Assembly: GCA_026982315.1 (NCBI GenBank)
Contig: JALSHI010000061.1
Span: 19,018 to 83,017 of the forward strand
DNA from: Lysobacterales bacterium
GTDB taxonomy: Bacteria; Pseudomonadota; Gammaproteobacteria; Xanthomonadales; Marinicellaceae
Length of the DNA stretch: 64,000 nucleotides
Direction: 5' to 3'
The notes beneath the pieces were generated by a model. It was not told the DNA's origin, searched no databases, and saw nothing but the letters and a program-made list of their open reading frames with translations. A program made the translations under genes and the position numbers. Shown here piece by piece: positions 8,077 through 61,091 of this stretch. The stretch's first letter is position 1. Every line of letters begins with the position of its first letter.

Positions 8077-10161
<2,085 letters not shown>

Positions 10162-10178: not shown

Positions 10179-11219
10179 TTATTTAAGGGTAGCACTGGCC
10201 TGCGCCTGCAATTCAACCAGATTGCGGCGCATTTCCACCCACTGCTTTTGTTGCCAGAATGGTTGACAGACATCCAGCATCGAGCGCCCCAGCAAGCGGT
10301 GGCACACCTGCACCACCGGAGCCTTCGGCGACTTGCGTGGCAACGACGCCAACAGTTCACAGGTCAACTCAGGCGTACAGGTCAAGGCCACATGGGCGCC
10401 CGCCTCGGAGCACGCATTGTAACGCGCCAGGATGCCGCCCACGCAAGTGGCCGCTTCCATTTCCAAATCATCGCTGATAATGGCGCCGGAAAACCCCAAG
10501 GCAGATTGCAGGATTTTCTTGCTCCAGTAAGCCGAGAAGCCTGCCGGTTGCTCACAAGCCCGGGCATAAACCACATGAGACAGCATGACCGCATCCAGTT
10601 TTTGTTCAGCAATCAGCCTGGCAAAAGGAACCATGTCGTTCTGTTGTATGTCCTCTGGCGTGCGCGTATCCACAGGCAACCGGTGGTGGGAGTCGGCCTG
10701 AACCGTGCCATGGCCGGGGAAGTGTTTGCCCGTGGTTTTCATGCCTGCAGCGTGCATACCGGCACAATATATCTCCCCTAACTCAGCAACCACTTTCGGG
10801 TCAGATGAAAAGGCTCTGTCGCCAATCACCTCGCTGCCATTATCGATATCCAGCACCGGCGCAAAGCTCATATCAACACCGACTGAAAGCAATTCCGCAG
10901 CCATCAACCAGGCATGCGTGTGTGCCAAGGCCCGGGCCAGATCCGGATTGTCGCCCCATACAGCACCAAGATCACCCAGGGCCGGAAGCTGGCTAAAAGG
11001 CAGTCCAAACCGCCTGACACGGCCGCCTTCCTGATCAACCGTAATCAGGAAGGACTTGCCCCGGATGGCCCGAATGGCGGTAATCAATCGCCGGAGCTGG
11101 TGATAGTCGTGATAATTCCGCTTAAACAGAATCACACCCCGCACCAGCGGATGCATCACTATCTGTCGGTCAGTCTGTGTGAGTTCAAGACCGGAAATGC
11201 CAGCGATGAGCGCGGTCAC
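10179..11219 (-). CDS. nagZ: Beta-N-acetylhexosaminidase (peptidoglycan recycling)
   Basis: HPLVRGVILFKRNYHDYHQL and VDQEGGRVRRF are GH3 NagZ signatures. The start is GTG (rc of 11217-11219) and overlaps the upstream stop as GTGA. Confidence 0.9.
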   Translation of the reverse strand: MTALIAGISGLELTQTDRQIVMHPLVRGVILFKRNYHDYHQLRRLITAIRAIRGKSFLITVDQEGGRVRRFGLPFSQLPALGDLGAVWGDNPDLARALAHTHAWLMAAELLSVGVDMSFAPVLDIDNGSEVIGDRAFSSDPKVVAELGEIYCAGMHAAGMKTTGKHFPGHGTVQADSHHRLPVDTRTPEDIQQNDMVPFARLIAEQKLDAVMLSHVVYARACEQPAGFSAYWSKKILQSALGFSGAIISDDLEMEAATCVGGILARYNACSEAGAHVALTCTPELTCELLASLPRKSPKAPVVQVCHRLLGRSMLDVCQPFWQQKQWVEMRRNLVELQAQASATLK

Positions 11220-13102
11220 TGCGGCTTGGCCCCAGCATCTTTAGTATGTTCATGGCTGATAACATGCAGGCGATCAATAGGCAGCGTGGTGGTGATTTGT
11301 TCGTGCCCATCCGGCCAGACAACTCGTACACGATAACCCGCCGGATCTGGCTTTTTACCCAGGCCAAAAGTGACCACCGGTTCAGTTTGAGCCAGATAAC
11401 TGCGGGTCAGGCTCTGCAATACCGCTGGCCCCAATGTCTCGCCATCAGCATCCAGTAATTGTACCCGGGCGCCGATGGCATCCGGATTTCCCTGCGGCCC
11501 TTGCAGCCGCACCCTGAGCCAGTGACCTGTATCGCTTTGGTTGATGAACAATAAGGCAGGCCGATTCACCTGCGTCAAAACAATATCCAAATCGCCGTCC
11601 GCATCCACATCGCCATAAGCCGCGGCCCGTCCCACAACCTTCATATCCGTCAAATCGCCCGCTTTTTCCACCGCCACGAAGGTACGGGCGCAATCTGCGC
11701 CACAATTCCAGAACAACTGACTTTTTTGTGCGTAATGCTGGGCTGGCTGAACGCGATTAATTTCGTTTTCCACATGCCCGTTAGTCTGAAAAAAGTCAAG
11801 GCGGCCATCCAGGTCGTAATCAAAAAAGAACAAACCAAAACTGAGCGCATGGCGGCTTTTCGGCCCCACACCAATAATGACCGAATCGTCAGTAAAGAAA
11901 GGTTGCTGCTGGCGCTTCACATAAAACGACGTCATTTCGTTGGCGAAATTGCCAATGCTCAAAGCCAAATCGGCAGAATTTTGGAAATGGGACACATCCA
12001 GCCCCATGGCACCGGTGGCCTTGCCGCTGGCGTCATAAGCCACGCCATAGCGGTCACCGGCTTCGGTAAAGTGGCCATGGCCATCATTGACAAACAAAAA
12101 GTTACCGCTGGTATCATTGGCCACTGCCACATCCAGCCAGCCATCCTCGTTCACATCCAGAAACACCAGTGCCAGGCCCTTGCCTGCAGGCTGGCCCGTG
12201 GCTGGATTCAGCACTTTCAAGCCGGTTTTTTCCGTCACGTCAACAAACTGGCCATCGCGATTTTCAAACAGACAATTCCAGCTGCCGGGGAAATTGCTGG
12301 GCGGCCCATAAGCGCGGCCAATGCCGTCCAGGCGATAGTCAGCCATATAGTCCAAGTCCTTGTTCCATTGCACATAGTTCACCACGAACAAGTCCAGATC
12401 CCCGTCCCGGTCATAGTCAAAAAAGCCCGCCGAGGTGCTCCAGGCATCCTGCATGCAATCCAGCGACTGTTTTGACTGTTCAAAGTGGGTGCCATTGCGG
12501 TTAATAAATAACCGGTTTTTCCCCACCGCGGACACAAACAGGTCGCGCCAGCCGTCGCCATTCACATCACCCACAGCCACGCCGGTGCCATAAAAGGACT
12601 TGTCCAGCCCAAAACGCCCGGTGGCGTCACTGAAGTGGCCACTGCCGTCATTCAGAAACAACTTTTGCGTTGGCGGGGAGCTGGGCTGCGGATCCCACGG
12701 CCAGGCCATGCCATTGGTTAAAAACAGATCATCATCACCGTCATTGTCCACATCAACAAAGGCCACGCCACTGCCCATGGTTTCCGGCAGCATGCGCTCA
12801 CCGCGCGCGCCGTTATATTGGTGCATGTGGAGCCCCCGTGAAACCGATTGTTCACTAAACTGCGTGGCCGGCGGCGTCTTGGACAGGTTGCTGGCCTGCA
12901 AGGCTGCAGGCGCTTGAAACTGACTCTTTTCATGAACTGCATGCGCCTTAGAGTTGCGCTGCATTCCCCACCATAACAAGGCGGCTATGGCCATGACGAC
13001 CACTATAACCAGCAATGACCGCTTGAAAAAGATTTCTATCACCGCCTCTCCTTCTGGAATGGCGGTTTGTGGCTTGTTCTTGTCCGGTGAAGATGTATTC
13101 AT
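11216..13102 (-). CDS. CRTAC1-family protein: N-terminal TM anchor, FG-GAP/VCBS repeats, ASPIC/UnbV-like C-terminus
   Basis: Repeated Ca-binding loops are present (VDVDNDGDDDLF, GDVNGDGWRDLF, DYDRDGDLDLF, LDVNEDGWLDV, GDVDADGDLDIV). The C-terminal part is GARVQLLDADG...VVTFGLG. The TM anchor is LLVIVVVMAIAALLWW. Confidence 0.8.
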   Translation of the reverse strand: MNTSSPDKNKPQTAIPEGEAVIEIFFKRSLLVIVVVMAIAALLWWGMQRNSKAHAVHEKSQFQAPAALQASNLSKTPPATQFSEQSVSRGLHMHQYNGARGERMLPETMGSGVAFVDVDNDGDDDLFLTNGMAWPWDPQPSSPPTQKLFLNDGSGHFSDATGRFGLDKSFYGTGVAVGDVNGDGWRDLFVSAVGKNRLFINRNGTHFEQSKQSLDCMQDAWSTSAGFFDYDRDGDLDLFVVNYVQWNKDLDYMADYRLDGIGRAYGPPSNFPGSWNCLFENRDGQFVDVTEKTGLKVLNPATGQPAGKGLALVFLDVNEDGWLDVAVANDTSGNFLFVNDGHGHFTEAGDRYGVAYDASGKATGAMGLDVSHFQNSADLALSIGNFANEMTSFYVKRQQQPFFTDDSVIIGVGPKSRHALSFGLFFFDYDLDGRLDFFQTNGHVENEINRVQPAQHYAQKSQLFWNCGADCARTFVAVEKAGDLTDMKVVGRAAAYGDVDADGDLDIVLTQVNRPALLFINQSDTGHWLRVRLQGPQGNPDAIGARVQLLDADGETLGPAVLQSLTRSYLAQTEPVVTFGLGKKPDPAGYRVRVVWPDGHEQITTTLPIDRLHVISHEHTKDAGAKPQ

Positions 13103-15951
13103 GGTTTTTCAACCTGCTTTACAGATAAAGGCGAATCAGTGGAAGCAAGCCCACTAGCCTGTTGCCCCAGGTATTCTTTAAAAGTATCCACAGGTTGCCA
13201 CCGACCCGCGCTCGATAATGTGTAAATGGCAATGGGATTGGCGGCATGGTCAGCGGCTGGATCCTTGCTGCGGGCCAAAGCAATGGCGCGATCGCGGGCA
13301 TTATCATCCAGCTTGTACTTTTGGTGCAAGGCCCGGTGTTTGTCCGCCTTGTTCATATCGCCCATTGCCGCGTAAACCTGGGCCAGCCCGTAATGGGCGT
13401 CCGGCCATTCCAGGTTCATGCTTAACACTTGCTGATACAGCTGCCGTGATTTTTCCAGGGCCTGTTGTCGGGATTCTCCGTGGAGTGTTTTGCTGTGCTG
13501 AAATACCGCTTCTGCAAAGCGTGTCACGAATGCATAGTCTTTTGAGAAGTCAAAGTCCGCGGTTTGTGCCGCTGCATAATTGCTCTGATAAATGCGGTTG
13601 AAATCTGCCACCGTTTTTTCCAGAAAACCACTCTGCCAGTCAATCAATCCGGAGAAAAAGTCCAACTGCCATGGCCAGGGATGATCCGCTTTGGCGGCAG
13701 AAACCAGCGCTGCGGCGGTCTCCTGCAAGCGGCCCTGCTGAAAATAGCTGCGCACCAAATTCACCCAGGCCAAAGGATATCCGCTTGCAGCCAGTGGTTG
13801 CAATACTTCCTCGGCCTGCCGGTAAGCACCGCTGCGCATGGCGCCAATGGCATAATCATTCCAGCGAGTCCATTGTTGTGAGTCAACGACCGAGGCTGGG
13901 TTGACATGTTCCTGACTGGCACCATTTTCATCAATGCGCAAAAGCAGGCTGTCCCGGTCCAGCGTGACAATGGGCAAATCATTAATTTTGTCTGGCTCAT
14001 TCATGAACAGCCGATAGTAGTTGGTGTCGAATTTGCGGTAATGCAAAGCGGCTTCAATCCTGAATTGGCCGCGGGCATCCTCAGGCACTTCAATGGCGTA
14101 ATGCACCAATGCCGCGGCCCCTGGCGGTATCTGATGGTTATAAAGCACGGTGAATATGTCTTCGACATTGCGCCGATCGATGCGGTTGCCGTCGCGATCA
14201 ATCACATAGGCATTGACCTTGTAAGCCCAATCATCCAGAACGCCATTTTCATCCACACCACCATTAATCGCCACCAGTTTGTCGTTGTGATACAAGCGGA
14301 CTTCCAGCCAGATCTGGTTGGAGTCGGCTGTTCCCTCGGTGAACCAGTGTCCCGGTGTCCGGGTGCGTAAGACTGTTTCCAGCAGGTATTTTTTACCTGG
14401 CTGCACCGTCAATTGTTTACGCTGCTCGTCTTTTTCTTCAGTCACCACAAGCGGATCGGTTAATTTGCCACCTGCGCGCAATGCGAATAAATCCACGGTC
14501 ACCGCATGCGTCAACATATCCCTGCCGGGTTCCTTCTCCAGCCCGGCGATGTGACGCACGGCATCATTGGCGGCCGTAAACCAGTGGCTGTGTATTCTCG
14601 GCGTTTCATCCAACGCATCACTAAAAGCGCCGAAATCGGCTGAGGGCTGCTCGGGCATATGGCACTGGGCACAATTCTGCTTGGCCATCTTGGGATAATA
14701 AAAACTGTTCACTGCATGCCCGGATACACCACTGAGAAAGAAGCTGTCATAGTGATCTTGCCCCCGCATCCAGTGGTAACCATTCAACTCAACCGGCAAA
14801 CCCACCTTGTGGCATCCACTGCAAAATTCGGCCGTTTTATGCACAGGCTTCAAATAGGTTTCCTTATGTAACTGCGGCTTGGCTTTAATCAGGGTTTTTC
14901 CCACCCAGGCCAAAGCCGGTGATTCGCTTTTACTGAACGGATAAACGGCTGGCGGCACCAGTGTGAATCCGCCATTGCCCTTGATGGTATGCACTGCAGC
15001 AATGGCATGGCAGGTGGTACAAGTCACACCGGCCTGGCCGATTTGCGTGGTTTCAAAACGCGCCTGAGGATCATCAAACTGACCGCTGAAAAGAATCACC
15101 GGATCATGACAGGCAGCGCAAAAGCGTGCGGCTTTGACATTGCCATCCCGCTTTAATAAAAACTCCCGGGTGTTATTGACTGCAAAGGTATAGGCCGGGT
15201 TGTTAAAACTGGACAGGTGATGGACACTATTTTCCCAGCCGGCATGCGCATCCTGGTGGCATTCCTGGCAAAAGTCCGAGTCATTCAGAACCGAGGCAGG
15301 AATGTACGCATCATTGGCCGTTTTGCTAAGCGCCGGATAAAACTTATCAGAAAACTCAACACCATCATCAGTCAATGCAGGCAGCGGCTTGGATAACCAC
15401 AAAAACAAGGCCGTCAACACCACAGCGGCCAAGATACTCCACTGCCCCGGCTTCCAGTTAATGCGGCGGCCCGCCAGACGGTGCATGATAAAAAGCCAGA
15501 TGACCGCCAGGGTCAGAATCACATGAAGCCAATAAGCCAGGCTTCTCATTTGTGGGTGCTTGAGCTCCAGATAAGGCACACCACGGGTTAACAACAATCC
15601 GGTCAACAACACCACAATGGCGGAAAAAAACAGCGCCAACCCGGCTTGAATTGCCCGCCGGTTGGGGCGATGACGGGCATTCCGGTAGTGGATGACTCCA
15701 TAAACAATAACGGGCACCACGAGTAAAAGGCCAATGAGCAAGTGGAACAAAAACATGCTCAAATAGACCGTGTTTTGCCAGGATTCACCGGTCAGGCGCT
15801 CCAGCACTCGCACCGCCAGCAAATAAATGGAGTTGATCGAAATCAGGGCAAACAGGGCAAAAACCACCCATAGTAACTGCTTCAGGCGGGGACCCACCAC
15901 GGCCCGGGCGCGAGTGGTTGCCGATTTGTTTTCTGCTGGCTTACCGACCAT
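13099..15951 (-). CDS. Membrane-anchored multihaem (5x CxxCH) c-type cytochrome with a C-terminal TPR-like region
   Basis: Five predicted TM helices span about residues 24-187. There are five CxxCH motifs (CQECH, CAACH, CTTCH, CSGCH, CAQCH) at residues 228-431 by my count, which is nt 14659-15270. The helical TPR-like tail contains YGLAQVYAAMGDMNKA. The ATG is at 15949-15951, and an ATGA overlap joins it to the next gene. Confidence 0.85.
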   Translation of the reverse strand: MVGKPAENKSATTRARAVVGPRLKQLLWVVFALFALISINSIYLLAVRVLERLTGESWQNTVYLSMFLFHLLIGLLLVVPVIVYGVIHYRNARHRPNRRAIQAGLALFFSAIVVLLTGLLLTRGVPYLELKHPQMRSLAYWLHVILTLAVIWLFIMHRLAGRRINWKPGQWSILAAVVLTALFLWLSKPLPALTDDGVEFSDKFYPALSKTANDAYIPASVLNDSDFCQECHQDAHAGWENSVHHLSSFNNPAYTFAVNNTREFLLKRDGNVKAARFCAACHDPVILFSGQFDDPQARFETTQIGQAGVTCTTCHAIAAVHTIKGNGGFTLVPPAVYPFSKSESPALAWVGKTLIKAKPQLHKETYLKPVHKTAEFCSGCHKVGLPVELNGYHWMRGQDHYDSFFLSGVSGHAVNSFYYPKMAKQNCAQCHMPEQPSADFGAFSDALDETPRIHSHWFTAANDAVRHIAGLEKEPGRDMLTHAVTVDLFALRAGGKLTDPLVVTEEKDEQRKQLTVQPGKKYLLETVLRTRTPGHWFTEGTADSNQIWLEVRLYHNDKLVAINGGVDENGVLDDWAYKVNAYVIDRDGNRIDRRNVEDIFTVLYNHQIPPGAAALVHYAIEVPEDARGQFRIEAALHYRKFDTNYYRLFMNEPDKINDLPIVTLDRDSLLLRIDENGASQEHVNPASVVDSQQWTRWNDYAIGAMRSGAYRQAEEVLQPLAASGYPLAWVNLVRSYFQQGRLQETAAALVSAAKADHPWPWQLDFFSGLIDWQSGFLEKTVADFNRIYQSNYAAAQTADFDFSKDYAFVTRFAEAVFQHSKTLHGESRQQALEKSRQLYQQVLSMNLEWPDAHYGLAQVYAAMGDMNKADKHRALHQKYKLDDNARDRAIALARSKDPAADHAANPIAIYTLSSAGRWQPVDTFKEYLGQQASGLASTDSPLSVKQVEKP

Positions 15952-18900
15952 GCCGATACCTCACGTTATATTTCTGATTGAGTGCCTTCGCGGTCTCATC
16001 AACGGGGCCTTGTTGGGGAATCGGCGCCAGGGTTTCCCCGTCTTTGGTCATTAAATCCATGTCCTTGGCCCAGCCTGTAAATTTCATGACAAAATAGCGA
16101 TTCCAGCCGGGCATCAATTCAGGCAAGTTGTTATCAAATGTCATTTCAATGGCCTCACCCGGGCCAATAATGGCCAGCGCATTATCGGTTTTTTCTACCA
16201 AAGGCTTGACATTACCCAGTACCGAATAGTTGCCTTGCATATAGCGCGTGTCCCAAAACGGCTGGCGCCGGGAATAATCATAATCCGGGCGGCGTTGGGG
16301 GCCATCTGTGCGCTGGGGGAAACCCGGCTTGAATAACCGGGCTGAAACCAGCGGCAAGGCGTGCATGTCAACGGCAGGCGGCGTTTCCCGTTTAACCAGA
16401 GCCAGCTCATCCAGATACAACTCCTGATTGCTGCGGATGCGGATTTTTTTCGCGCCGCTCACCGCCTGCCCCAAAGGGATGCTGGCCAGCCGCGGCATAC
16501 CGGCCGGGTAGCCGGCCTCTGCCACCACAGGCTGCCAGCGGCCATTGCGCCACACATCCACACTGGGTGGTTGCCAGCGCAAACCCGCCTGCCAGGCGGC
16601 AAAGCCGGTTTGGGAATAACCATATTCCACCCAGCCGCGCATGAGCAACACCCAGTCGCCGTCAGGGATATGGTCAAACCGCAGGGTAAGCGTCTGCTCG
16701 CCATCGGCAAAGCCCATAAAGCGCTTATCCAGTGCCGCCGGTTCAATCGCATGATTGTCCGCATACAGCCCCGCAGCGGTCACATCTGCGCCATCTTGCC
16801 TGGTTATGGTCGACGGATTGATCCGTTGACGATAGAAAACCGGTTCGCCAGTGACCTCTGGCAACCCTGTTTGCATGCGTTCATCCAAAAGCACCTGCCA
16901 ACCAGGCGGCACATCGAGCACTTCCACCTGCACAGAGTCCAGATAAGCGGCTTCTTCCATGGGCTCGGTAAACAAAAGGGAATACCCGCTCTCATCAGCC
17001 GTCCAGCGGTGACCTGGGACCAGATAGTTTTCCCATGGCCGCGGCTCTGCATAAAGGTCTTTGCCGATGGCAAAACCCATGCCGCCCACACCCAGAACGT
17101 CGCTTTCAAACTGGTATTCTCCATCCCGCTTGAGAAAAATCACCGGACAGGATGAGAGTTGCCGCTGGGTTTCGGCAATCCGCACATACCGGCCCGTGGG
17201 CAGATTTTGCTCTGTTTGATAGACGCCATCGGGCCATTCGATAGCGATAAAGTCCAGTTGTTTGGCACCACAAGCGGCGGAAACCGCTTGATAGTTCTGC
17301 CCCGTTCCCAAGCCATTGAACCAGGTGGTGCCGGTACTGGCGCAATCGCCAGCAAAAACCGTGTATTTGACACCAATACCGGATTTGTTGGAGCGCACCG
17401 AATTGGCCTTGTCTTCGGCACCAGTAAACGCCAGCAGCGCAAAGGGTGCCCGATTGGCCGTGGCTCCCAGGCGCATCCAGTGGGAGCCGGTGTAAAATAA
17501 CAGTTCCGGCCCTTGCTGGGTACGCCATATCAAGGGCGGAAATGTTGCAGAGAACCCGTCAAGGGTATGTTTTTCTAATGGCTCGCCTGTTGGCGATGCC
17601 AGAACCCGTATTTCATCAGAAAAAAACAGCAATACATCCTTGCTCCCGTCGCCACTGATATCCACTGCGGCCAGCATTCGGGGGGTCGCATTCAGCCGGC
17701 GAAACCTTTCAATAGGCTGGAGGCGTTTTTCAGCAGGGTTCCAGGCCCAGTGACTCATACCCTTGTCATGGCTTATCAACCAGTCGGGGATGCCATCATT
17801 ATCCAGATCCGCCACCGCCAGTGATACAGGCGGCTTGTCCAGCTTGAGTGTATGCAATCGATAATGCCACATACGATCATTACGAAGCCAGCTGATACCG
17901 TCGCGCTGGCGCAAGATAATATCCACATCCCGGTCGGCATCCACGTCCGCCAGCAATATTTGCTCTACCTGGGAAAGTTCAGGGATGGCTTTTTCGGCAT
18001 TCAACACACGCCAACTGCCATCCAGGTTATTGTTCCAGAGCTCAAAGCCACCGGCCATGGTTACCGCCAGAATGTCCAGATCGCCATCATGGTCAGCATC
18101 CGCGAGGCGAACATTGCGCCAGGCCGGACCACCCAGACCAAACTTGTCATCGCCAGCCAGTGTAAATTGACCTTGTTGATTCCGCCATAACTGACTGGAT
18201 GCGCCAGCCAGAACCACATCCAGCTGGCCATCATTGTCTACATCCCCCCAGGCCATGGCGCGAAAACCGGATGTATCTGGCAACTGAATCAACCGTTCGG
18301 CTCTGGACGAGCCGGAATGCGAGGTGGGCCGGGAAACATTTGCTGCTGGCAAGGGCCGCAAGTAAACCCCGTTAGGCCGCAACGTGGCCAACCCTGTCTG
18401 CCCATTGTGCTGCAAATCCACCAAATTGGCGGTAATTGCTGGCTGAACAGACTTCGCAAACAGTGTTGCCGGCTCAGTAAAAAACGGCGCTTTCAATGGC
18501 TGTTTATTGGGCTGTGCCCCAGAAGGTGCCCCGTGAATGATGGTTTTTACTTCCGCCTTTGGGCCCATGCGGGTATATTTGATTTCCGCCAAACGGCTTT
18601 GTGGATTGGCCTGCAATTTCTGATAATCCGCCAGCATTTTTTCAGCCAGTGGCAACTGCCCCAGTTGCTGGGCAGTCATAAAAGCGCTGTAATAGGCGCT
18701 GCGTAAATAGCCATCCGCGCGCACAGCCTGTTGAAACCGGGCCAAGGCGGCATCCGGTTGTCCTTGCTGCAACAAACATTGCCCGGAAAAGTACAAGGCG
18801 TAGGCATCATTCGGGTCAGCCTGTACCACCTGTTCAAAATGAGGCAATGCCGCATCACAACGACCGGCATTCAAGTGCAGCAAGCCTGCGATATAGCGGG

Positions 18901-19294
18901 CCTGGATTTCATCAGAATCCCTTTTGGCCAGTCCTTCAGCCAGTTGCAGGGCTTTTTCTTCATCGCCCTCGTGCTGGCGGTTTAGCAAGGCAATCAAGTG
19001 ATTGAGCTGGAACAGCCGGTTATCAGGGCGCTGCTGCAATAACTCCGCAAAGGTTTTTTCCGCCTTGGCATATTCAAAACGCCCCATTTCCGCCACTCCG
19101 CGGTTATTCAGGGTCACCAAGGCGGGTGGAATGACCGGCGCATTATTGTGCCCGGCTCGGTCTCCAGAACGGTCGGTTTCTGGCTCATTATTTGTATTTT
19201 GACACGCGCTCAGCGCACCAAGCGCCAGTCCAAAAAAAACGCATCGCACCAGGCAAGAAAAACGAACACCCACGTGGCGAAAAGTCAGCTTCAT
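15941..19294 (-). CDS. Large lipoprotein: TPR region, FG-GAP/VCBS repeats, ASPIC/UnbV-like segment, and an unassigned C-terminal region of about 400 aa
   Basis: The signal peptide ends in the lipobox ALSAC. TPR-like helices cover about residues 60-235. FG-GAP loops are GDVDNDGQLDV, ADADHDGDLDI, ADVDADRDVDI, ADLDNDGIPDW and VDISGDGSKDV. An ASPIC-like segment reads SNKSGIGVKYTVF...IAIEWPDG. Confidence 0.8.
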   Translation of the reverse strand: MKLTFRHVGVRFSCLVRCVFFGLALGALSACQNTNNEPETDRSGDRAGHNNAPVIPPALVTLNNRGVAEMGRFEYAKAEKTFAELLQQRPDNRLFQLNHLIALLNRQHEGDEEKALQLAEGLAKRDSDEIQARYIAGLLHLNAGRCDAALPHFEQVVQADPNDAYALYFSGQCLLQQGQPDAALARFQQAVRADGYLRSAYYSAFMTAQQLGQLPLAEKMLADYQKLQANPQSRLAEIKYTRMGPKAEVKTIIHGAPSGAQPNKQPLKAPFFTEPATLFAKSVQPAITANLVDLQHNGQTGLATLRPNGVYLRPLPAANVSRPTSHSGSSRAERLIQLPDTSGFRAMAWGDVDNDGQLDVVLAGASSQLWRNQQGQFTLAGDDKFGLGGPAWRNVRLADADHDGDLDILAVTMAGGFELWNNNLDGSWRVLNAEKAIPELSQVEQILLADVDADRDVDIILRQRDGISWLRNDRMWHYRLHTLKLDKPPVSLAVADLDNDGIPDWLISHDKGMSHWAWNPAEKRLQPIERFRRLNATPRMLAAVDISGDGSKDVLLFFSDEIRVLASPTGEPLEKHTLDGFSATFPPLIWRTQQGPELLFYTGSHWMRLGATANRAPFALLAFTGAEDKANSVRSNKSGIGVKYTVFAGDCASTGTTWFNGLGTGQNYQAVSAACGAKQLDFIAIEWPDGVYQTEQNLPTGRYVRIAETQRQLSSCPVIFLKRDGEYQFESDVLGVGGMGFAIGKDLYAEPRPWENYLVPGHRWTADESGYSLLFTEPMEEAAYLDSVQVEVLDVPPGWQVLLDERMQTGLPEVTGEPVFYRQRINPSTITRQDGADVTAAGLYADNHAIEPAALDKRFMGFADGEQTLTLRFDHIPDGDWVLLMRGWVEYGYSQTGFAAWQAGLRWQPPSVDVWRNGRWQPVVAEAGYPAGMPRLASIPLGQAVSGAKKIRIRSNQELYLDELALVKRETPPAVDMHALPLVSARLFKPGFPQRTDGPQRRPDYDYSRRQPFWDTRYMQGNYSVLGNVKPLVEKTDNALAIIGPGEAIEMTFDNNLPELMPGWNRYFVMKFTGWAKDMDLMTKDGETLAPIPQQGPVDETAKALNQKYNVRYRHGR

Positions 19295-19324: not shown

Positions 19325-20248
19325 TTAAACCGAGTTATTGTAACAGTTCGGACGATTATGCTGAGCCATACAATGCCCTTTCCGCCGCTGTCTCTCATAA
19401 TGTAGAGCCGCAAGATCAATGGGCGCCACCACGATGCGCTCGCCCGGCCCCGGTTCGGCCTGAGCCATTATGCGCCCATCAAAGTCAACCACCATGGAGC
19501 CCCCTGGCCAACTAAAGGGAGGAAATCGCTCACGCGTGGCGCCTTGGTTACTGGCCACCACATACACCGTGTTTTCCAGCGCCCGGGTACGGTTAACCAG
19601 CGGCCACCAATTCATGGGTTCGGCACTGCCCCAGGGGTCCATATAAGCCGAAACACGGCAGATAACATCGGCCTGTTGATAAGCAATCGCCTGAATGCAC
19701 TGAGGGAACAGCCAGTCATAGCAAATGGCCACCCCCAGGCGGCCAATGGCTGTATCGGCCACCGGAAACAGAGGTTCCTCGTAACCGGCAATGTCCGCCG
19801 GTGAGCTGTGGACTTCCCAGGGCTGCCACGGATTCACCTTGCGATAGCGGCTCAGGACGCCTTCAGGCCCAATGAGCAAAGTGCTGTTAAACACATGCCC
19901 CGGATAACGGGGATCCTTCTCCAGAAAGGTGCCTGTCTGCAAATAGACATTCAGATCCCGGGCCACTTCCAGATACGGATTGAGAAAATCACCAGACAGC
20001 TCGACGGCCAGTTTGTCATACAGGCTTTTGGCGTCGGGATACACCGGCGCCTGATGCGCAAACTCAGGAAAAACCAGCAAGCGAATATCGAAAACCGGCG
20101 CATATGCCTCCACAGTCTGGCGCGCCAGCTCCGCCAACCGCCGACAGCGAGCCGGTAGCTCCCTCAGCTTGTCCAGCGCCGGCAAATCAGTCTGAATGGC
20201 GGCCGCGTAATAGCGCTTAAACACCGGAGATAACAGCCGGCTTTCCAC
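19325..20248 (-). CDS. Carbon-nitrogen hydrolase (nitrilase superfamily), aliphatic amidase/formamidase-like
   Basis: A Glu-Lys-Cys triad context is present: LVFPEF, YRKVNPW, VAICYDWLFP. The track start is GTG at 20248 and overlaps the upstream gene by 32 nt. An in-frame GTG at 20222-20224 would remove the overlap. Confidence 0.75.
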   Translation of the reverse strand: MESRLLSPVFKRYYAAAIQTDLPALDKLRELPARCRRLAELARQTVEAYAPVFDIRLLVFPEFAHQAPVYPDAKSLYDKLAVELSGDFLNPYLEVARDLNVYLQTGTFLEKDPRYPGHVFNSTLLIGPEGVLSRYRKVNPWQPWEVHSSPADIAGYEEPLFPVADTAIGRLGVAICYDWLFPQCIQAIAYQQADVICRVSAYMDPWGSAEPMNWWPLVNRTRALENTVYVVASNQGATRERFPPFSWPGGSMVVDFDGRIMAQAEPGPGERIVVAPIDLAALHYERQRRKGHCMAQHNRPNCYNNSV

Positions 20249-21218
20249 CCGAGCGCACAGCGGCTTCGTCCTGAAGTTTGAACTCCACCCGGTAACGGCG
20301 CGTTAAGGGTTCACTAATACCGTAGTTTTGTGGAGGCTCAAAGCGCCATTGCTGAACGGCCTTCAAAGCGGGTTTGGCGAAAATACGCTGATTGCGGTAT
20401 ATCTTCACCACATCTGCCTGCTGAACAGTGCCATCAGGATTGATAGTCACATCCACATCCACCCAGCCTTCCTTGCGTTCCCGATAGGCCTTGACCGGAT
20501 AGTCCGGAGCCACTTTATGGACAAATGTCCACTGGTAGGCTTTGGGAGTTGACGAGGCTGATTGGGTATTGCCGGATGCCTCTGCTGGCGTGGCAGGTTG
20601 TTGCGGCAACAACCGCTGACGTTCAACCTCTTCAGCGGCTTGCAGTTCCCGACGACGGGCTTCAAGCGCGGCCTGTTCGGCCTGTTGCTGACGTTGCTTT
20701 TCCGCTTCTGCTGCCAGTCGTTCCTGTTCCCGGCGCTGGGCTTCCTGGCGAAGTTGTTCCTGCCGTCGGGCTTCTGCTTCCGCTGCCAGGCGCTCCTTCT
20801 CCCGGCGTTCTGCCTCTTGCCGAAGCTGCTCTTGCCGGCGGGCTTCTGCTTCCGCCGCCAGGCGCTCCTGCTCCCGGCGCTGGGCTTCCAGTTGCTGTTG
20901 GCGTGCCTTTTCTTCAGCCTGTTTTTTTTGCGCCGCCAGCGCAGCACTCTGCTTGGCTGTTTCTGACTGCTGGGTTTCTTCCGCAGGCTGGTTTTGAGAG
21001 TCTTCTTCGGCAAAAATATCGCCACGCTGTTCGCGGTCGCCAAAGTCGCTCATATCGAGATCCAGCTCGATTTTTTTCCGGGTTTCCTTCAGCACTTCCA
21101 TATCCGGCGCTTCAGTTTTTTCCGGCAAATCTTCAGACCAGCTCGGTTTGTCTGCCGTTTGCGCTTGCAGCAACAGCGGCAGCAAAAGCAGGGCTAATAT
21201 CAGTAAGTCTCTTTTCAT
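20217..21218 (-). CDS. TonB C-terminal domain protein with a long E/Q/R/A-rich repeat region
   Basis: The C-terminus (PDYPVKAYRERKEGWVDVDVTINPDGTV...ALKAVQQWRFEP) fits the TonB_C fold. The N-terminus MKRDLLILALLLLPLLLQAQ is a signal peptide or anchor. The ATG is at 21216-21218; the track start at 21275 was rejected. Confidence 0.7.
   Translation of the reverse strand: MKRDLLILALLLLPLLLQAQTADKPSWSEDLPEKTEAPDMEVLKETRKKIELDLDMSDFGDREQRGDIFAEEDSQNQPAEETQQSETAKQSAALAAQKKQAEEKARQQQLEAQRREQERLAAEAEARRQEQLRQEAERREKERLAAEAEARRQEQLRQEAQRREQERLAAEAEKQRQQQAEQAALEARRRELQAAEEVERQRLLPQQPATPAEASGNTQSASSTPKAYQWTFVHKVAPDYPVKAYRERKEGWVDVDVTINPDGTVQQADVVKIYRNQRIFAKPALKAVQQWRFEPPQNYGISEPLTRRYRVEFKLQDEAAVRSGGKPAVISGV
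20688..20879. repeat. Imperfect 72-bp (24-codon) tandem repeat, about 2.7 copies, inside the TonB-like gene
   Basis: The peptide unit ERLAAEAEARRQEQLRQEAERREK recurs: REQERLAAEAEARRQEQLRQEAERREKERLAAEAEARRQEQLRQEAQRREQERLAAEAEKQRQ. The DNA unit ttctgcttccgc[ct]gccaggcgctcc... is visibly repeated. Confidence 0.7.
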
Positions 21219-21334
21219 GTTAGACGGCTTCGGGGAGAATGCAAAATATCTTAACAAGACAGCACGTTTTTTCAAGAAAACGATGGACTTATCGCTGGTT
21301 TTTGCAGATTCAGGGACGATTCCGCTCCCCGAGT

Positions 21335-55121: not shown

Positions 55122-55673
55122 ATGGCTCTGCCCCACACCAAACAAAAGGAACTTCAAGCCTTATGGCGCGCCTACTGGGAGACACCCTACTTTAATCAGC
55201 GGATCCAATTGGTTCCTGGTCAAAAAACGCCAGTCACACCCGATTCTGACACTGTCACTTTGTGGCTGACAGCCGAAAACCCGCACTCACAGCCATGCGA
55301 CAAGGAAGAAAACCAGCGCAGAAACCAGCATTTGGCCAGTGAAATCACCAAACTGCTCACAAAAAGCTTGCCGCAGGAGTTGATACATGTTGAAGCGGCA
55401 ACAGCCCGCCACCCCAATCATCAGTGGCCTGCCGAGCAGGGTTTTTTTGTGTTTATGCCAGCGGCTGTCTGGGCGCAAACGCGCAGCGAGTGGGAAACCC
55501 TGGCGGCCCGCTGGGGTCAAAACGCCATTGTTGTGGCCGAACCGGGAAAACCCGTCATTGTGATGCCCACCGATCCGATGTTTCGCCAACAGCTCACAAG
55601 TGCCGGTTTATGGTCTCCAGGCCGCCCCGAAAAGGATAGCAGTGTCATCAACCACGCGCCCGCATCACACTGA
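55122..55673 (+). CDS. DUF3293-like hypothetical protein
   Basis: TLWLTAENPHSQPCDKEENQRRNQHLASEI resembles the ITAxNP...eN motif I recall for DUF3293. The first ATG is at 55122; the track start at 55029 is TTG. Confidence 0.5.
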   Translation: MALPHTKQKELQALWRAYWETPYFNQRIQLVPGQKTPVTPDSDTVTLWLTAENPHSQPCDKEENQRRNQHLASEITKLLTKSLPQELIHVEAATARHPNHQWPAEQGFFVFMPAAVWAQTRSEWETLAARWGQNAIVVAEPGKPVIVMPTDPMFRQQLTSAGLWSPGRPEKDSSVINHAPASH

Positions 55674-55692
55674 ACTTGCAAGACTTGCCAAA

Positions 55693-56391
55693 ATGAAATC
55701 TGTCATGCCATTTGAGCCCAGCAGAACCGCCTCTCAGATGCCTGTAAAAAAAGCGCATGAATGGCGTCTCCAAGGCTCGTTACTGAGTTGTGAGCGCGAA
55801 GGTGCTGCATTGTTCAAACCGGTTTCCTTCCATATTTCTGCTGGAGAGTCACTCTTATTGAGCGGCCCCAATGGCATTGGTAAAACCACATTACTGGAGG
55901 CCATCGCCGGCTTGCGGCGCTATACCAGTGGCACTCTGCGGCTCAACAATAAAAATATTCAGGACCAGTTGCCCGCATGGTGGAAGAGCCTGTGCTATAT
56001 CGGCCATAAAGATGGTAATAAAAAGGCCTTGAGCTGCTTGGAGAACCTGAAATTCACCGCACGCCTGCACGGCCATACCCCCACAACCGAGTCACTGCTA
56101 AACGCGCTGGATGCAGTGGGGCTGGCCGGTTACGAACACCATCTGGCCGGCAACTTGTCCGCAGGACAAAAAAAACGCCTGTCACTGGCGAGACTGCCGC
56201 TGGTACAAGCGCCTGTCTGGATTCTGGATGAACCCTTTGTCAACCTGGACGTAGCAGGCAATCAATGGTTGCTGGAGTGGCTAGATGCCCACCTGCAACA
56301 AGGCGGAATGCTATTTATTACCGCTCATGACAACCAGGAAATGCACCGCCGCGCCACCTATCGGCAGGAACTGTACCCCACAGACACATGA
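55693..56391 (+). CDS. ccmA: Cytochrome c biogenesis heme-exporting ATPase CcmA
   Basis: The Walker A motif is GPNGIGKTTLL, the ABC signature is LSAGQKKRLSLA, and Walker B is WILDEP. The ATG at 55693 is the first after the upstream stop; the ATG at 55738 is also possible. Confidence 0.88.
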   Translation: MKSVMPFEPSRTASQMPVKKAHEWRLQGSLLSCEREGAALFKPVSFHISAGESLLLSGPNGIGKTTLLEAIAGLRRYTSGTLRLNNKNIQDQLPAWWKSLCYIGHKDGNKKALSCLENLKFTARLHGHTPTTESLLNALDAVGLAGYEHHLAGNLSAGQKKRLSLARLPLVQAPVWILDEPFVNLDVAGNQWLLEWLDAHLQQGGMLFITAHDNQEMHRRATYRQELYPTDT

Positions 56392-57095
56392 TTCATCTGA
56401 TGCCGCAAAAACCAGAAAAACTGAAAACCACTGTGATGCTGGCAGCACTCATCCAGCGGGATGTGCTGATTGGCCTGCGACAAAAATCGCAAATTTATCA
56501 GCCACTGGTCTTTCAACTGCTGGTTGTCACCATGTTTCCCCTGGGGCTGGGAGCTGGCGCAAAAACCCTCGCCGCCATCGCACCGGCGGTCATCTGGGTA
56601 TTGGCGCTACTGGCCAGCCTGCTTACGTTGGATCATATTTTCAAAGTCGATCACGAAGATGGCTCTCTGGAAACCTATGTGCTGTCACCGGTACCCTTGC
56701 CGGCTTCGGTTCTGGCCAAAGCCGGCGCCCACTGGCTACTGACCGGCTTACCTTTGACTCTATTTTCGCCTATAATAGCGGCCCTGATGCACCTGCCAGA
56801 ATCCGCTTTTGGCACCATGCTGATATCGTTACTGCTGGGAACGCCCACCATGAGCCTGATCGGGTCCATGGGTTCGGCATTAACGATCAGCCTGAAACAT
56901 GGTGGCTTGTTACTGACTGTTCTGGTCATGCCCTTGCTGGCTCCAGTATTGATTTTTGGCGCCAGCGCCATCCTGGAAAGCACGCTTGGCAATCCTGCAT
57001 CCGGACAATTGCTGGCACTGACCGCTCTTCTGGTATTTTCCCTGACATTGGTGCCCTTTGCCGCGGCCACCGCCATTCGAATTAACCTGGAATAG
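56388..57095 (+). CDS. ccmB: Heme exporter protein CcmB
   Basis: It is a six-TM protein. An ATGA overlap joins it to ccmA, and its position in the ccm operon fits. Confidence 0.9.
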   Translation: MIHLMPQKPEKLKTTVMLAALIQRDVLIGLRQKSQIYQPLVFQLLVVTMFPLGLGAGAKTLAAIAPAVIWVLALLASLLTLDHIFKVDHEDGSLETYVLSPVPLPASVLAKAGAHWLLTGLPLTLFSPIIAALMHLPESAFGTMLISLLLGTPTMSLIGSMGSALTISLKHGGLLLTVLVMPLLAPVLIFGASAILESTLGNPASGQLLALTALLVFSLTLVPFAAATAIRINLE

Positions 57096-57102
57096 ACTCC
57101 AC

Positions 57103-57861
57103 ATGAACCGTCTTGTCAAACTCTATCACCAACTGGGATCACCCCCTACCTTTTACCGTATCACTGGTAAATGGTTGCCATGGTTACTGGGCGGTGCCCT
57201 TGTACTCATGTTCTGGGGCTTGTACGACGGCCTGTTTGTGGCCCCGATTGATTACCAGCAACGCGAAAGTTTCAAAATTTCCTATATCCATGTGCCAGCC
57301 GCCTGGATGTCCATGTTCATCTACCTGGCCATGGGTATTGCCGGCTTTATGGCCCTGGTCTGGAGAATGAAAGTCGCAGAAGCCATTCTTATTGCTTCGG
57401 CGCCTGTGGGGGCCATATTCACACTTTTGGCATTGCTGACTGGCTCTTTGTGGGGCAAACCCATGTGGGGCACCTGGTGGGACTGGGATGCCCGCATGAC
57501 GTCCGAGCTTATCCTGCTTTTTTTGTATATTGGTGTTATGGCCACGTATAACGCTTATGACGATCCCCGCAAAGGTGCACGCGTCGCCGCCCTGGTGGCG
57601 GTGATCGGCCTGGTCAACCTGCCCATTATTCACTTTTCCGTCCAATGGTGGTCAACCATTCATCAGGCTTCCACAGTAAGCCTGTTTGGCAAGCAACACA
57701 TTCCCTGGAGCATGTTGCGTGGCTGGCTTATTATGGCCGTCGGCACCAAACTTTATTATGGCTATTCCGTGCTCAAGCGCGCGCGTTTGTTATTGCTGGA
57801 GACAGAAAAAAACACCGCCTGGGTGCAAAAAATCATTGAACAGGAGTGTCGCCATGCCTGA
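57103..57861 (+). CDS. ccmC: Heme exporter protein CcmC
   Basis: The WWD motif WGTWWDWDARMT is present. The ATG at 57103 was chosen. Confidence 0.93.
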   Translation: MNRLVKLYHQLGSPPTFYRITGKWLPWLLGGALVLMFWGLYDGLFVAPIDYQQRESFKISYIHVPAAWMSMFIYLAMGIAGFMALVWRMKVAEAILIASAPVGAIFTLLALLTGSLWGKPMWGTWWDWDARMTSELILLFLYIGVMATYNAYDDPRKGARVAALVAVIGLVNLPIIHFSVQWWSTIHQASTVSLFGKQHIPWSMLRGWLIMAVGTKLYYGYSVLKRARLLLLETEKNTAWVQKIIEQECRHA

Positions 57862-58045
57862 TTTCCTCGATATGGGCAAATACAGTTTTTATGTCTGGAG
57901 CAGCGTCGCCCTTTTCTTTATTCTCATCGGCTGGGACATGTTTTCCCTGCAACGCAAGCAGAAAAGTCTGTGCCGCCAGTTGCTCGCCATGCAGCGGCGG
58001 CAAAAACACCGCCGACGCAGCCACAGGAACCAGCCACTTGAATAG
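57854..58045 (+). CDS. ccmD: Heme exporter protein CcmD
   Basis: The 63-aa product MPDFLDMGKYSFYVWSSVALFFILIGWDMF has a single TM helix. It overlaps the ccmC stop by 8 nt. It is embedded in a longer track ORF (57686..58045) that I rejected. Confidence 0.8.
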   Translation: MPDFLDMGKYSFYVWSSVALFFILIGWDMFSLQRKQKSLCRQLLAMQRRQKHRRRSHRNQPLE

Positions 58046-58089
58046 ATGGTCATACTGCCAATCCCCTTAAATTTACAGAGATCATATCG

Positions 58090-58551
58090 ATGACTCCAAA
58101 ACGCAAAAAACGCCTGATGGTAACCCTGCTGATTGTGTTGGGCGTGGCGGCAGCCACCGCATTGATGACATCGGCTTTCCGGGAAAATATCCTCTATTAC
58201 AAAAGCCCATCGGATATTGCTGAAGGCAACTTCCCGCAACAACGCAGTTTTCGCATCGGCGGCATGGTCAAGGAAGGCACTTTCCACAAGGCGGATGACA
58301 GTTTAAAAGTTGATTTTGTGATTACCGATTATGCCAAGGAAGTGCCCGTGCATTATGAAGGCATTCTGCCTGACCTGTTCCGGGAAGGCCAGGGCGTCAT
58401 TGCCATTGGCCGTATGCGACCTGACGGCACTTTTGTCGCTGAGGAAGTACTGGCCAAACACGATGAAAACTATATGCCGCCAGAGGTGGCCGCCAGTCTC
58501 AAAAAGAAACCCGCTGCAGATACCGCAGCGCCCCAAGAATCCTCACAATAA
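58090..58551 (+). CDS. ccmE: Cytochrome c-type biogenesis heme chaperone CcmE
   Basis: A TM anchor and an OB fold are present. The heme-binding region is LAKHDENYMPPE. Confidence 0.93.
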   Translation: MTPKRKKRLMVTLLIVLGVAAATALMTSAFRENILYYKSPSDIAEGNFPQQRSFRIGGMVKEGTFHKADDSLKVDFVITDYAKEVPVHYEGILPDLFREGQGVIAIGRMRPDGTFVAEEVLAKHDENYMPPEVAASLKKKPAADTAAPQESSQ

Positions 58552-58563
58552 AGGCCCACTATC

Positions 58564-60543: not shown

Positions 60544-61091
60544 AAAAATCGACTTCTACATGGCTTAAAGCCATTTTGCCACTAATCATTTTTATTGGCT
60601 TTGTGGCGCTGCTCATGAGCGGAATCGGTAAAAATCCACGCCTGATTCCCTCGCCTCTGATTGGCAAGCCGGCACCAGATTTTGCACTGCCCTCCTTACA
60701 CGACCCCAAGCGAATTATCCGCAAGCAGGACTTGTTGGGGCAGTATTACCTGCTGAATGTCTGGGGCAGTTGGTGCCCATCTTGCCGGGTGGAGCACCCG
60801 ATGGTGAGCCAGCTGGCCAGTTCAGGCCTGATTCCTGTTTATGGCCTGAACTGGAAAGATGAGCCTGAAAATGCCAAAGCCTGGCTGCAGCAGTTTGGCG
60901 ACCCTTATGCTGATATCCTGGTGGATTACGAAGGCCGAACAGCCATTGATTTCGGCGTTTATGGCGCACCGGAATCCTTTATCATTGATAAAAAAGGCAT
61001 TATCCGCCATAAAGTGGTGGGTGAAATCACACCACAGGTGGTTCAAAACGAACTGATCCCTTTGATACGTATCCTGGACGCGGAATCATGA
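60540..61091 (+). CDS. ccmG: Thiol:disulfide oxidoreductase DsbE/CcmG
   Basis: WGSWCPSC is a thioredoxin-type CxxC motif, and GVYGAPESFIIDKKG is also present. Confidence 0.92.
   Translation: MKKSTSTWLKAILPLIIFIGFVALLMSGIGKNPRLIPSPLIGKPAPDFALPSLHDPKRIIRKQDLLGQYYLLNVWGSWCPSCRVEHPMVSQLASSGLIPVYGLNWKDEPENAKAWLQQFGDPYADILVDYEGRTAIDFGVYGAPESFIIDKKGIIRHKVVGEITPQVVQNELIPLIRILDAES

Follow-up and report, generated by a model that had tools for sequence, protein, structure and literature searches.

The polysulfide reductase MccSep of Geobacter sulfurreducens consists of two parts, a pentahaem cap and an Ig-like stem, and its catalytic selenocysteine reaches from the stem to the His/Cys-ligated haem 2 (bioRxiv 10.1101/2025.11.18.688581). 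In hydrazine-synthase-like clusters of non-anammox Planctomycetota, Acidobacteriota, and Desulfobacterota, a CRTAC1-family FG-GAP gene is located between genes of periplasmic haem-c proteins (PMC12758564). One member of the CRTAC1 family is a biomarker of human osteoarthritis, and no biochemical function has been established for the family in any organism. Here, we analyzed a 64,000-nucleotide stretch (the window) of contig JALSHI010000061.1 from a Lysobacterales bacterium, in which three large genes encode P1, a lipoprotein with TPR and FG-GAP domains, P2, a membrane pentahaem cytochrome c with a TPR arm, and P3, a CRTAC1-like protein. From gene neighborhoods, residue conservation, and AlphaFold2 (AF2) models, we lean toward the view that P2 and P3 form a conserved two-gene module of a membrane-bound periplasmic redox system.

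More than 4144 P2 homologues were found, and the best 120, all full-length (45–79% identity), have names that are no more than generic. In an exhaustive search (E ≤ 1e-30), the P2 relatives fell into 490 clusters at 50% identity. When one genome per species was scanned, at least 597 of these species-representative genomes had a P2 relative. The carriers include Gammaproteobacteria, Planctomycetota, Verrucomicrobiota, Acidobacteriota, Methylomirabilota, and others, with Wenzhouxiangella marina (CP012154.1), Rhodopirellula europaea 6C, R. maiorica SM1, and Stieleria mannarensis JC639 among the cultured ones. Sequences from different phyla share 40–53% identity along more than 90% of the P2 length, and this strong constraint points to an important function. 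Some lake and sediment metagenome-assembled genomes (MAGs) bear implausible taxon labels, such as Akkermansia muciniphila, Bifidobacterium sp., and Halobacteria archaeon (L028, L042, L049, and L073). Errors of binning or labelling are the probable cause, and phylum counts need care for this reason.

Gene order was compared by tblastn of the window proteins against 80 loci, the best-scoring of the at least 597, and 69 loci had at least 2 kb of room for P3. In 60 of the 69 loci, a P3 orthologue (≥40% identity) was encoded in the same direction no more than 700 nt from P2, and in 64 it was no more than 3 kb away (87–93%). The commonest P2–P3 gap was a 4-nt overlap in the 45 pairs measured from open reading frame (ORF) coordinates. 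The adjacency recurs in at least five phyla, far beyond chance, and because it is conserved on the same strand in so many of the loci with room, P2 and P3 are very probably functional partners. A preliminary description of this DNA had proposed P1, P2, and P3 as one unit, whose neighborhood should be conserved in other genomes. The unit that is conserved proved to be the P2–P3 pair and not the trio. Full-length P1 was directly upstream of P2 in 9 of 54 loci, with a more distant P1-like gene in 3 more (~17–22%), and P1 is also found without P2–P3.

The AF2 model of P2, calculated with 111 homologues (predicted local distance difference test (pLDDT) 89; predicted template modelling score 0.87), shows five transmembrane (TM) helices (residues 21–54, 61–92, 98–121, 133–159, and 166–186) in an N-in, C-out protein. 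The charged residues in the N-terminus and in the loops 93–97 and 160–166 place the N-terminus in the cytoplasm, so that the haem domain would be periplasmic, matching the requirement of c-haem attachment. Four histidines of the TM domain are invariant in 111 close and 28 cross-phylum sequences, two of them on TM2 (H70 and H88) and two on TM4 (H143 and H157). According to the AF2 helix boundaries, H70 and H143 are 9–10 residues away from the periplasmic helix ends, and H88 and H157 are 2–4 residues away from the cytoplasmic ends. The spacings are i+18 on TM2 and i+14 on TM4, and TM3 has an invariant Gly pair (G104/G118), likewise at i+14. In 80 diverse P2 representatives, the periplasmic pair H70/H143 is kept in essentially all members bearing the domain. 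Cytochrome b, FdnI, and NOX-type domains hold two bis-His b-haems stacked in the membrane. Since the His pattern of P2 is the signature of such domains, we infer that the TM bundle is a candidate di-haem b site, with two bis-His haems stacked through the membrane.

The five CxxCH motifs of the periplasmic part are invariant in the 111 homologues and in the 80 diverse representatives. Residues 228–315, which cover haem motifs 1–3, match the Pfam family Cytochrome_C554 (PF13435; 25.1 bits vs. a cut-off of 20.8), a generic multihaem domain model that assigns no function. A profile of residues 200–690 searched against the PDB matched cytochrome c552 of Thermochromatium (5ze8; 5.9e-6) and MccSep (9wt8/9wt9; ~6e-4), and the alignments span haem motifs 1–3 and the CxxCHM fifth motif. 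The NCBIfam model ExtKL (NF040886) gave an E-value of 1.7e-8 and 33.5 bits, far under its cut-off of 250. These matches indicate that the P2 haem domain is distantly related to Thermochromatium c552 and Geobacter MccSep.

Only four histidines outside the haem motifs are universal in the 80 diverse representatives: H244, H362, and H456 in the cap and H535 in the beta-sandwich (100%). H371 is kept in just 62%. Because there are four universal distal His candidates for five c-haems and one of the four comes from the beta-sandwich, the conservation pattern suggests a special site at the cap/beta-sandwich interface. H535 belongs to a strongly conserved loop, G534-H535-x-F-T-x-G-T-x-D-S-N-x-x-W548, and this loop and the cap have the highest conservation of P2 outside the haem motifs. 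The beta-sandwich is without a Pfam match. Another conserved segment, residues 395–412, has low pLDDT in the AF2 models; low pLDDT is common in cofactor-dependent loops.

These features could also mean that P2 is a self-sufficient, membrane-anchored reductase or peroxidase of the MccSep or NrfA kind, with P3 and P1 as non-redox scaffolds, chaperones, or tethers bound through the TPR arm. The c552/MccSep-related cap followed by a beta-sandwich would fit, as would a c-haem that may be without a conserved distal His, and TPR and propeller domains are typical protein–protein interaction modules. However, the 111 homologues and the 80 diverse representatives have no conserved Cys apart from those of the five CxxCH motifs, and the equivalents of Cys239 and Sec325 of MccSep are missing. 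MccSep-type chemistry was rejected for P2 on these grounds. A coupling of about 90% between phyla at 40–54% identity would also be unexpected for a mere accessory. We consider a P2 acting by itself decidedly unlikely.

A Foldseek search of the full P2 model against the PDB returned only TPR proteins (including MamA, TM-score up to 0.8 on target) and was uninformative on the non-TPR domains. After the last TPR helix, the segment at residues ~875–905 (13237–13330), KYKxDDNARDRAIAxAR...AADHAA...IxIY, is better conserved than the TPR repeats and has pLDDT above 90. This segment may be a docking element. TPR and FG-GAP/ASPIC domains occur together in three arrangements: fused in P1, in the coupled genes of P2 and P3, and in adjacent genes (L009, L089, L090, and L091). 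By the domain-fusion (Rosetta-stone) argument, the fusion in P1 and the coupling in P2/P3 suggest that the TPR arm of P2 docks the propeller of P3. Extra sets of CRTAC1-like and stand-alone TPR genes are present near the module in many loci (for example L089 1486–12824, L090 4311–13375, and L009 14646–18593), and one protein of such a set has 1293 aa with two FG-GAP/ASPIC units. Their distribution suggests a lineage-specific expansion of TPR–propeller pairs.

There are TM-less variants of P2 (for example P0353, P0382, and P0317) that start with a signal peptide and keep the five haem motifs, the His loop, and the TPR part. At L091 6250–10205, the gene of P0353 (734 aa, 33% identity) overlaps a CRTAC1-like gene by 4 nt, with that gene upstream, in the reversed order; for this subfamily the pairing was seen in one locus, the sole one with DNA to inspect. 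A small TPR protein is encoded further upstream of the CRTAC1-like gene in L091. As the TM-less relative keeps its CRTAC1-like partner, the P2–P3 partnership would be older than the split of the subfamilies, and the TM domain of P2 behaves like a part that can be exchanged, bringing electrons in or taking them out.

P3 is a membrane-anchored, CRTAC1-like beta-propeller with Ca loops. Besides UnbV_ASPIC, it matches the Pfam families FG-GAP_3 (2.2e-29, 102 bits vs. a cut-off of 26.9) and FG-GAP (2.4e-10), and phmmer aligned it with the human CRTAC1 structure 9etn (3.4e-11) over residues 481–600 only. Residue conservation was compared between 48 P3 orthologues and 13 paralogues (<40% identity) found in the loci of these orthologues. 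The Asp residues of the Ca loops are invariant in the orthologues and are generic. The orthologue-specific residues are W134, W246, D251, R263-A264-x-G266, K308, T331, E347, F386, M390, R417, H443, E445, Q455, W465, and S29, the last of which is in the TM anchor and is invariant in the orthologues and found in 8% of the paralogues. Such a residue set is consistent with a dedicated pocket or interface.

The orthologue-specific residues, which are polar and aromatic and do not belong to the generic Ca loops, raise the question of whether P3 is the catalytic subunit, and the explanations that compete with ours differ chiefly over which subunit is catalytic. P3 would then be a Ca-dependent propeller enzyme that oxidizes or reduces a periplasmic or envelope substrate, and P2 would do no more than connect it, as a dedicated electron wire, with the quinone pool. 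If oxidation of the substrate drove the reduction of quinone on the cytoplasmic side, the two would form an energy-conserving redox loop like that of FdnGHI, and the di-haem TM arrangement read from the His pattern fits such a loop. The CRTAC1-family genes between haem-c enzyme genes in the hydrazine-synthase-like clusters (PMC12758564) also speak for it. However, P3 has no recognizable redox-cofactor motif, no Cys pairs, and no His clusters, and the conservation maximum in the beta-sandwich loop and cap points to a site on P2. No CRTAC1-family protein is known to have a redox activity, and our literature search found none. Catalysis by P3 is in our judgement rather unlikely.

P1 is a lipoprotein that combines TPR, an FG-GAP propeller, a weak UnbV_ASPIC segment, and a C-terminal domain of ~400 aa without a family match. 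Its family has at least 864 proteins with ~40% full-length identity, and a lipobox-like motif is present in 89 of 120 P1 homologues. The UnbV_ASPIC segment of P1 is sub-threshold (15.7–15.9 bits vs. a cut-off of 23.4). The family was matched in 15 of 22 related P1 segments (E ≤ 1; best 1.4e-5), and many P1 homologues bear a precomputed PF07593 match. The C-terminal domain (~720–1117) has an invariant Ser-Cys-Pro motif (S715-C716-P717). Searches of the C-terminal ~400 aa against Pfam and PDB sequences found nothing past the weak UnbV_ASPIC segment. Other large FG-GAP proteins, encoded close to P2 in many loci, contain this domain as well, at 26–30% identity.

A gene of the nitrilase superfamily (CN-hydrolase) is located upstream of P1 with a gap of 30 nt. 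Its translation contains the motifs FPEF, RKVNP, and AICYDW of the Glu-Lys-Cys triad. All matches to NCBIfam equivalogs were far under their cut-offs (best, formamidase with 96.5 bits vs. 406), and the protein falls in none of the characterized branches tested (formamidase, aliphatic amidase, AguB, Lnt, and deaminated-glutathione amidase). Between Gammaproteobacteria and Planctomycetota, the identity of the hydrolase is 55–64%. In L008, L027, L051, L064, L075, L081, L088, L092, and L093, it precedes P1 in the same orientation. Of the 9 loci that have full-length P1 directly upstream of P2, 6 have it upstream of P1, and one Binatia MAG has P1–P2–P3 without the hydrolase. In the complete genome of Wenzhouxiangella marina, the four genes form a block with gaps of 36, 3, and −4 nt, and the full block is also present in Planctomycetota MAGs. 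The hydrolase and P1 are thus a second conserved pair, part of an extended module. As judged from gene order, the conserved unit is two pairs, hydrolase–P1 and P2–P3, which are concatenated in some lineages including that of the window. The hydrolase–P1 pair probably extends the same pathway as P2–P3.

The features of the locus are listed in Table 1. Reading of the sequence showed that the ATG of P2 at 15951 gives an 11-nt overlap with the end of P1 (TAA), with GAGG ~9 nt upstream of the ATG, and that the P2/P3 junction is ATGA at 13102–13099. The stop codon of P3 overlaps the GTG start codon of nagZ in GTGA at 11219–11216. Base composition is even throughout the three-gene block. A promoter and terminator scan gave nothing convincing at the gene boundaries of the block, and no tRNA, rRNA, riboswitch, or other RNA family was found in an Rfam scan of the whole 64-kb window. 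The plus strand encodes cytochrome c maturation system I at 55600–62784.

Table 1. Genes and protein features of the P1–P2–P3 locus and other genes of the window (aa, amino acids).
Feature	Position	Strand	Description
P1 ORF	15941–19294	minus	1117 aa; from the ORF list
P1 lipobox	19202–19213	minus	L28-S29-A30-C31, read from the translation
P1 TPR	18575–19087	minus	~residues 70–240; TPR_16 2.2e-12, TPR_2 4.5e-10
P1 FG-GAP	17615–18259	minus	~residues 346–560; five DxDxDG-type loops; FG-GAP_3 2.7e-23 in five stretches
P1 C-terminal region	15944–17437	minus	residues 620–1117; weak UnbV_ASPIC at ~665–703, then a domain without a match
P2 ORF	13099–15951	minus	950 aa; from the ORF list
P2 TM domain	15394–15891	minus	residues 21–186; five helices from AF2 models
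P2 pentahaem c domain	14542–15339	minus	residues 205–470; CxxCH at C228, C278, C311, C377, C427
P2 beta-sandwich	13933–14502	minus	residues 484–673; strands from AF2
P2 TPR arm	13237–13899	minus	residues 685–905; Pfam TPR_19
P3 ORF	11216–13102	minus	628 aa; from the ORF list
P3 N-terminal TM anchor	12962–13018	minus	~residues 29–47, from the translation
P3 UnbV_ASPIC (PF07593)	11267–11479	minus	residues 542–612; 6.1e-12, 45.7 bits vs. a cut-off of 23.4
CN-hydrolase gene	19325–20248	minus	307 aa, without a signal peptide; Pfam CN_hydrolase 9.4e-35
nagZ, beta-N-acetylhexosaminidase	10179–11219	minus	NCBIfam equivalog, 394 bits vs. a cut-off of 207
TonB-C/TolA-like gene	20217–21275	minus	352 aa; 3' end overlaps the CN-hydrolase start by 32 nt
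FadH/OYE-family Fe-S flavoenzyme	8077–10149	minus	690 aa; Oxidored_FMN and Pyr_redox_2
CcmA	55600–56391	plus	cytochrome c maturation system I
CcmF/NrfE-type haem lyase	58564–60543	plus	cytochrome c maturation system I
CcmI/NrfG-like TPR protein	61588–62784	plus	cytochrome c maturation system I

In most other points, the preliminary description and our analysis agree. The three ORFs with their stop/start overlaps are exactly at the coordinates and junctions it gave. Its five TM helices of P2 are present in the AF2 models, its five CxxCH motifs are invariant, and the TPR tail was recovered with Pfam; the anchored CRTAC1-like P3 with FG-GAP and UnbV_ASPIC was confirmed as well. Its haem attachment machinery in the window was found as CcmA and CcmF. 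For P1, Pfam supported the lipoprotein with TPR and five FG-GAP stretches, and its ASPIC/UnbV segment is sub-threshold in P1 itself and matched in 15 of the 22 related segments. The CN-hydrolase partner of P1 and the P3/nagZ overlap had been missed, as had the four TM His, the beta-sandwich, and the distant c552/MccSep relationship of P2.

The surroundings of the block would allow a trivial explanation, in which the genes are incidental neighbors without a common function. The block is part of one long minus-strand gene run with tiny gaps, P3 overlaps a housekeeping gene as well as P2, and P1 with the hydrolase is found elsewhere without P2–P3. However, the P2–P3 adjacency is kept in 60–64 of the 69 loci and at least five phyla, and the nagZ and TonB-like genes are not conserved neighbors. 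The recurrence of the four-gene block in Wenzhouxiangella marina and the Planctomycetota MAGs also speaks against it. For P2–P3, synteny effectively refutes incidental adjacency, and we regard this explanation as highly improbable.

As a fourth member of the module, nagZ was ruled out, since it is a housekeeping equivalog that adjoins P3 only in the lineage of the window (L001 and L002) and in none of the 80 cross-species loci. The TonB-C/TolA-like gene was ruled out too, as it is not a recurrent neighbor and is confined to the same lineage. Its protein has a long repetitive middle rich in Q, E, A, and R, in which 'RREQERLAAEAEARRQEQLRQEA' units are repeated. The FadH/OYE-family gene comes after nagZ on the same strand and is not conserved with the module. 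The best NCBIfam matches of its protein are all under the equivalog cut-offs.

Clustering of the neighboring ORFs in the 80 loci gave only CRTAC1-like, stand-alone TPR, and CN-hydrolase proteins as recurrent families. This result bears on whether the genes encode a porin–cytochrome conduit for extracellular electron transfer with the lipoprotein P1 at the outer membrane. The combination of a multihaem cytochrome with a lipoprotein would suit a conduit, and P2 has a weak match to the Pfam MtrC/MtrF domain II/IV model (25.6 bits, under the cut-off of 30); its NrfB-like match is also under the cut-off. However, neither a porin family nor any further recurrent family was among the neighbors in the 80 loci, and P2 is an inner-membrane protein with only five c-haems. 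The carriers are mostly lineages of aerobic heterotrophs, and P1 is missing from most loci. A conduit of this type is rejected as very improbable.

In the membrane-bound redox module that we favor, the TM bundle of P2 would bind two b-haems, one at H70/H143 near the periplasmic face and the other at H88/H157 near the cytoplasmic face. Like FdnI, NarI, and cytochrome b, the bundle would be a wire through the membrane that has a quinone site, and electrons would move between this wire and the five c-haems. The link to the quinone pool, which the preliminary description had already proposed, is plausible. The cap/beta-sandwich interface, with the H535 loop and one c-haem lacking a universal distal His, would be a functional and possibly catalytic site, a parallel to MccSep, whose Ig-like domain provides the catalytic residue. 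The TPR arm would dock P3, and P3 would bind or transform a substrate in its orthologue-specific polar and aromatic pocket. In some lineages, the cytoplasmic hydrolase and the TPR–propeller fusion P1 would probably extend the same pathway. Our working guess for the electron direction is from quinol to a periplasmic acceptor.

Several observations weigh against this proposal. The Pfam profiles Ni_hydr_CYTB and DUF4405 each matched the TM domain in 1 of 28 members (E ~0.04), a PDB sequence profile search with the TM domain gave no relevant match, and a Foldseek search with P2 residues 1–470 gave nothing significant (best E 0.7). The only matches with raised probability in that search were cytochrome b of complex III (0.77), NOX5 (0.6–0.7), and Dcytb (0.2), and the multihaem relatives 5ze8 and 9wt8 were outside the top 50. 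The AF2 models contain no cofactors, and the His pairing of P2 is a depth pattern taken from helix boundaries, not a geometry. The cytoplasmic pair H88/H157 is less universal, being kept in about 80–90% of the 80 diverse representatives, and since TM-less variants exist, the quinone link is not obligatory for the P2 family. The lack of a cofactor motif in P3, described above, counts in the same direction. Five of the 69 loci have no adjacent P3, and the hydrolase–P1 pair occurs without adjacent P2–P3 at L088 8874–13285 and L093 10001–14948, in genomes of 5.4 and 7.6 Mb. The loci analyzed are the best-scoring ones and mostly MAG contigs with uncertain labels.

Taken together, P2–P3 is a credible candidate for an unrecognized cell-envelope redox system. 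A more detailed version of our proposal is tentative. P2–P3 might be an undescribed, cross-phylum respiratory or periplasmic redox enzyme. Its b2c5 cytochrome, with a haem-b membrane domain of a new type, would connect the quinone pool with the CRTAC1-like propeller; the propeller would capture or convert a substrate, and the hydrolase and P1 would process the same, possibly nitrogen-containing, substrate. The component domains and quinone-linked multihaem systems are already known. Our full-text literature search found no description of the P2 architecture (TM His-bundle, c552/MccSep-like cap, beta-sandwich, and TPR), of the near-obligate pairing of P2 with a CRTAC1-like gene, or of the hydrolase–P1 pair, and no publication assigning a function to the module, in line with the preliminary description. 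A preprint on peat multihaem cytochromes was considered as a description of the module and rejected, as it concerns other, haem-dense cytochromes. The one related item that the literature search gave is the CRTAC1-family gene of the hydrazine-synthase-like clusters (PMC12758564), and these are different from the P2–P3 module.

The carriers of P2 include abundant marine, soil, and freshwater groups, namely Planctomycetota, Verrucomicrobiota, Acidobacteriota, and marine Gammaproteobacteria, and the cultured isolates that carry the module are a starting point for experiments. The near-obligate genomic tie to a multihaem cytochrome is a concrete, testable lead on CRTAC1. If P2–P3 is a redox enzyme, it would give the CRTAC1/ASPIC-UnbV family its first molecular function. 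Should the TM domain of P2 hold two b-haems, the electron wires that cross the membrane and couple to quinones would gain a new sequence family.

Among the known systems, MccSep/ExtKL (9wt8, 9wt9) and Thermochromatium tepidum c552 (5ze8) are like P2 in having a helical cap with five CxxCH motifs and then a beta-sandwich, and their alignment with P2 covers haem motifs 1–3 and the fifth motif, CxxCHM. The beta-sandwich donates an active-site residue in MccSep and carries the most conserved loop in P2, and this likeness is one of layout, seen in the AF2 model. PtdA of the ptd cluster has the same layout of cap and beta-sandwich, and c552 and PtdA are without an assigned function. P2 differs from MccSep in lacking counterparts to the haem-ligating Cys239 and to Sec/Cys325. 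It differs from both MccSep and c552 in its five-TM anchor with four invariant His in place of a signal peptide, its extra TPR arm of ~220 aa, and its near-obligate CRTAC1-like gene partner. A quinol dehydrogenase of the NapC/NirT/NrfH/CymA type was rejected for P2, which has five TM helices and five haems vs. a single TM helix and a tetrahaem domain, and the NrfH model TIGR03153 gave 18.3 bits, far under its cut-off of 134.

In the membrane, P2 is like the di-haem cytochromes b that link periplasmic redox enzymes with quinones (FdnI, NarI, HybB/CbcL-type, bc1 cytochrome b, and the ferric-reductase domain of NOX/MsrQ) in its two His pairs at matched depths on two TM helices. An i+14 His spacing on one helix is that of the helices B and D of cytochrome b. 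The i+14 Gly pair on the neighboring helix and conserved Arg residues at helix ends are further likenesses. Geobacter CbcL is a known case in which a b-type membrane domain and a multihaem c domain are fused. Unlike the di-haem cytochromes b, which have four, six, or eight helices, P2 has five, and it has no significant sequence or fold similarity to these families, b561 included.

P3 shares with vertebrate CRTAC1 (9etn) and the bacterial ASPIC/UnbV proteins the FG-GAP propeller with Ca loops followed by UnbV_ASPIC. Unlike CRTAC1, it is anchored by a TM helix at its N-terminus, lacks an EGF-like tail according to Pfam, and has orthologue-specific residues and a cytochrome gene as its neighbor. 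In the hydrazine-synthase-like clusters, the partners are subunits like hydrazine synthase alpha and beta-gamma, unlike the five-TM pentahaem-TPR protein P2, and the gene order differs. These clusters are a second, independent association of the CRTAC1 family with a haem-c redox enzyme.

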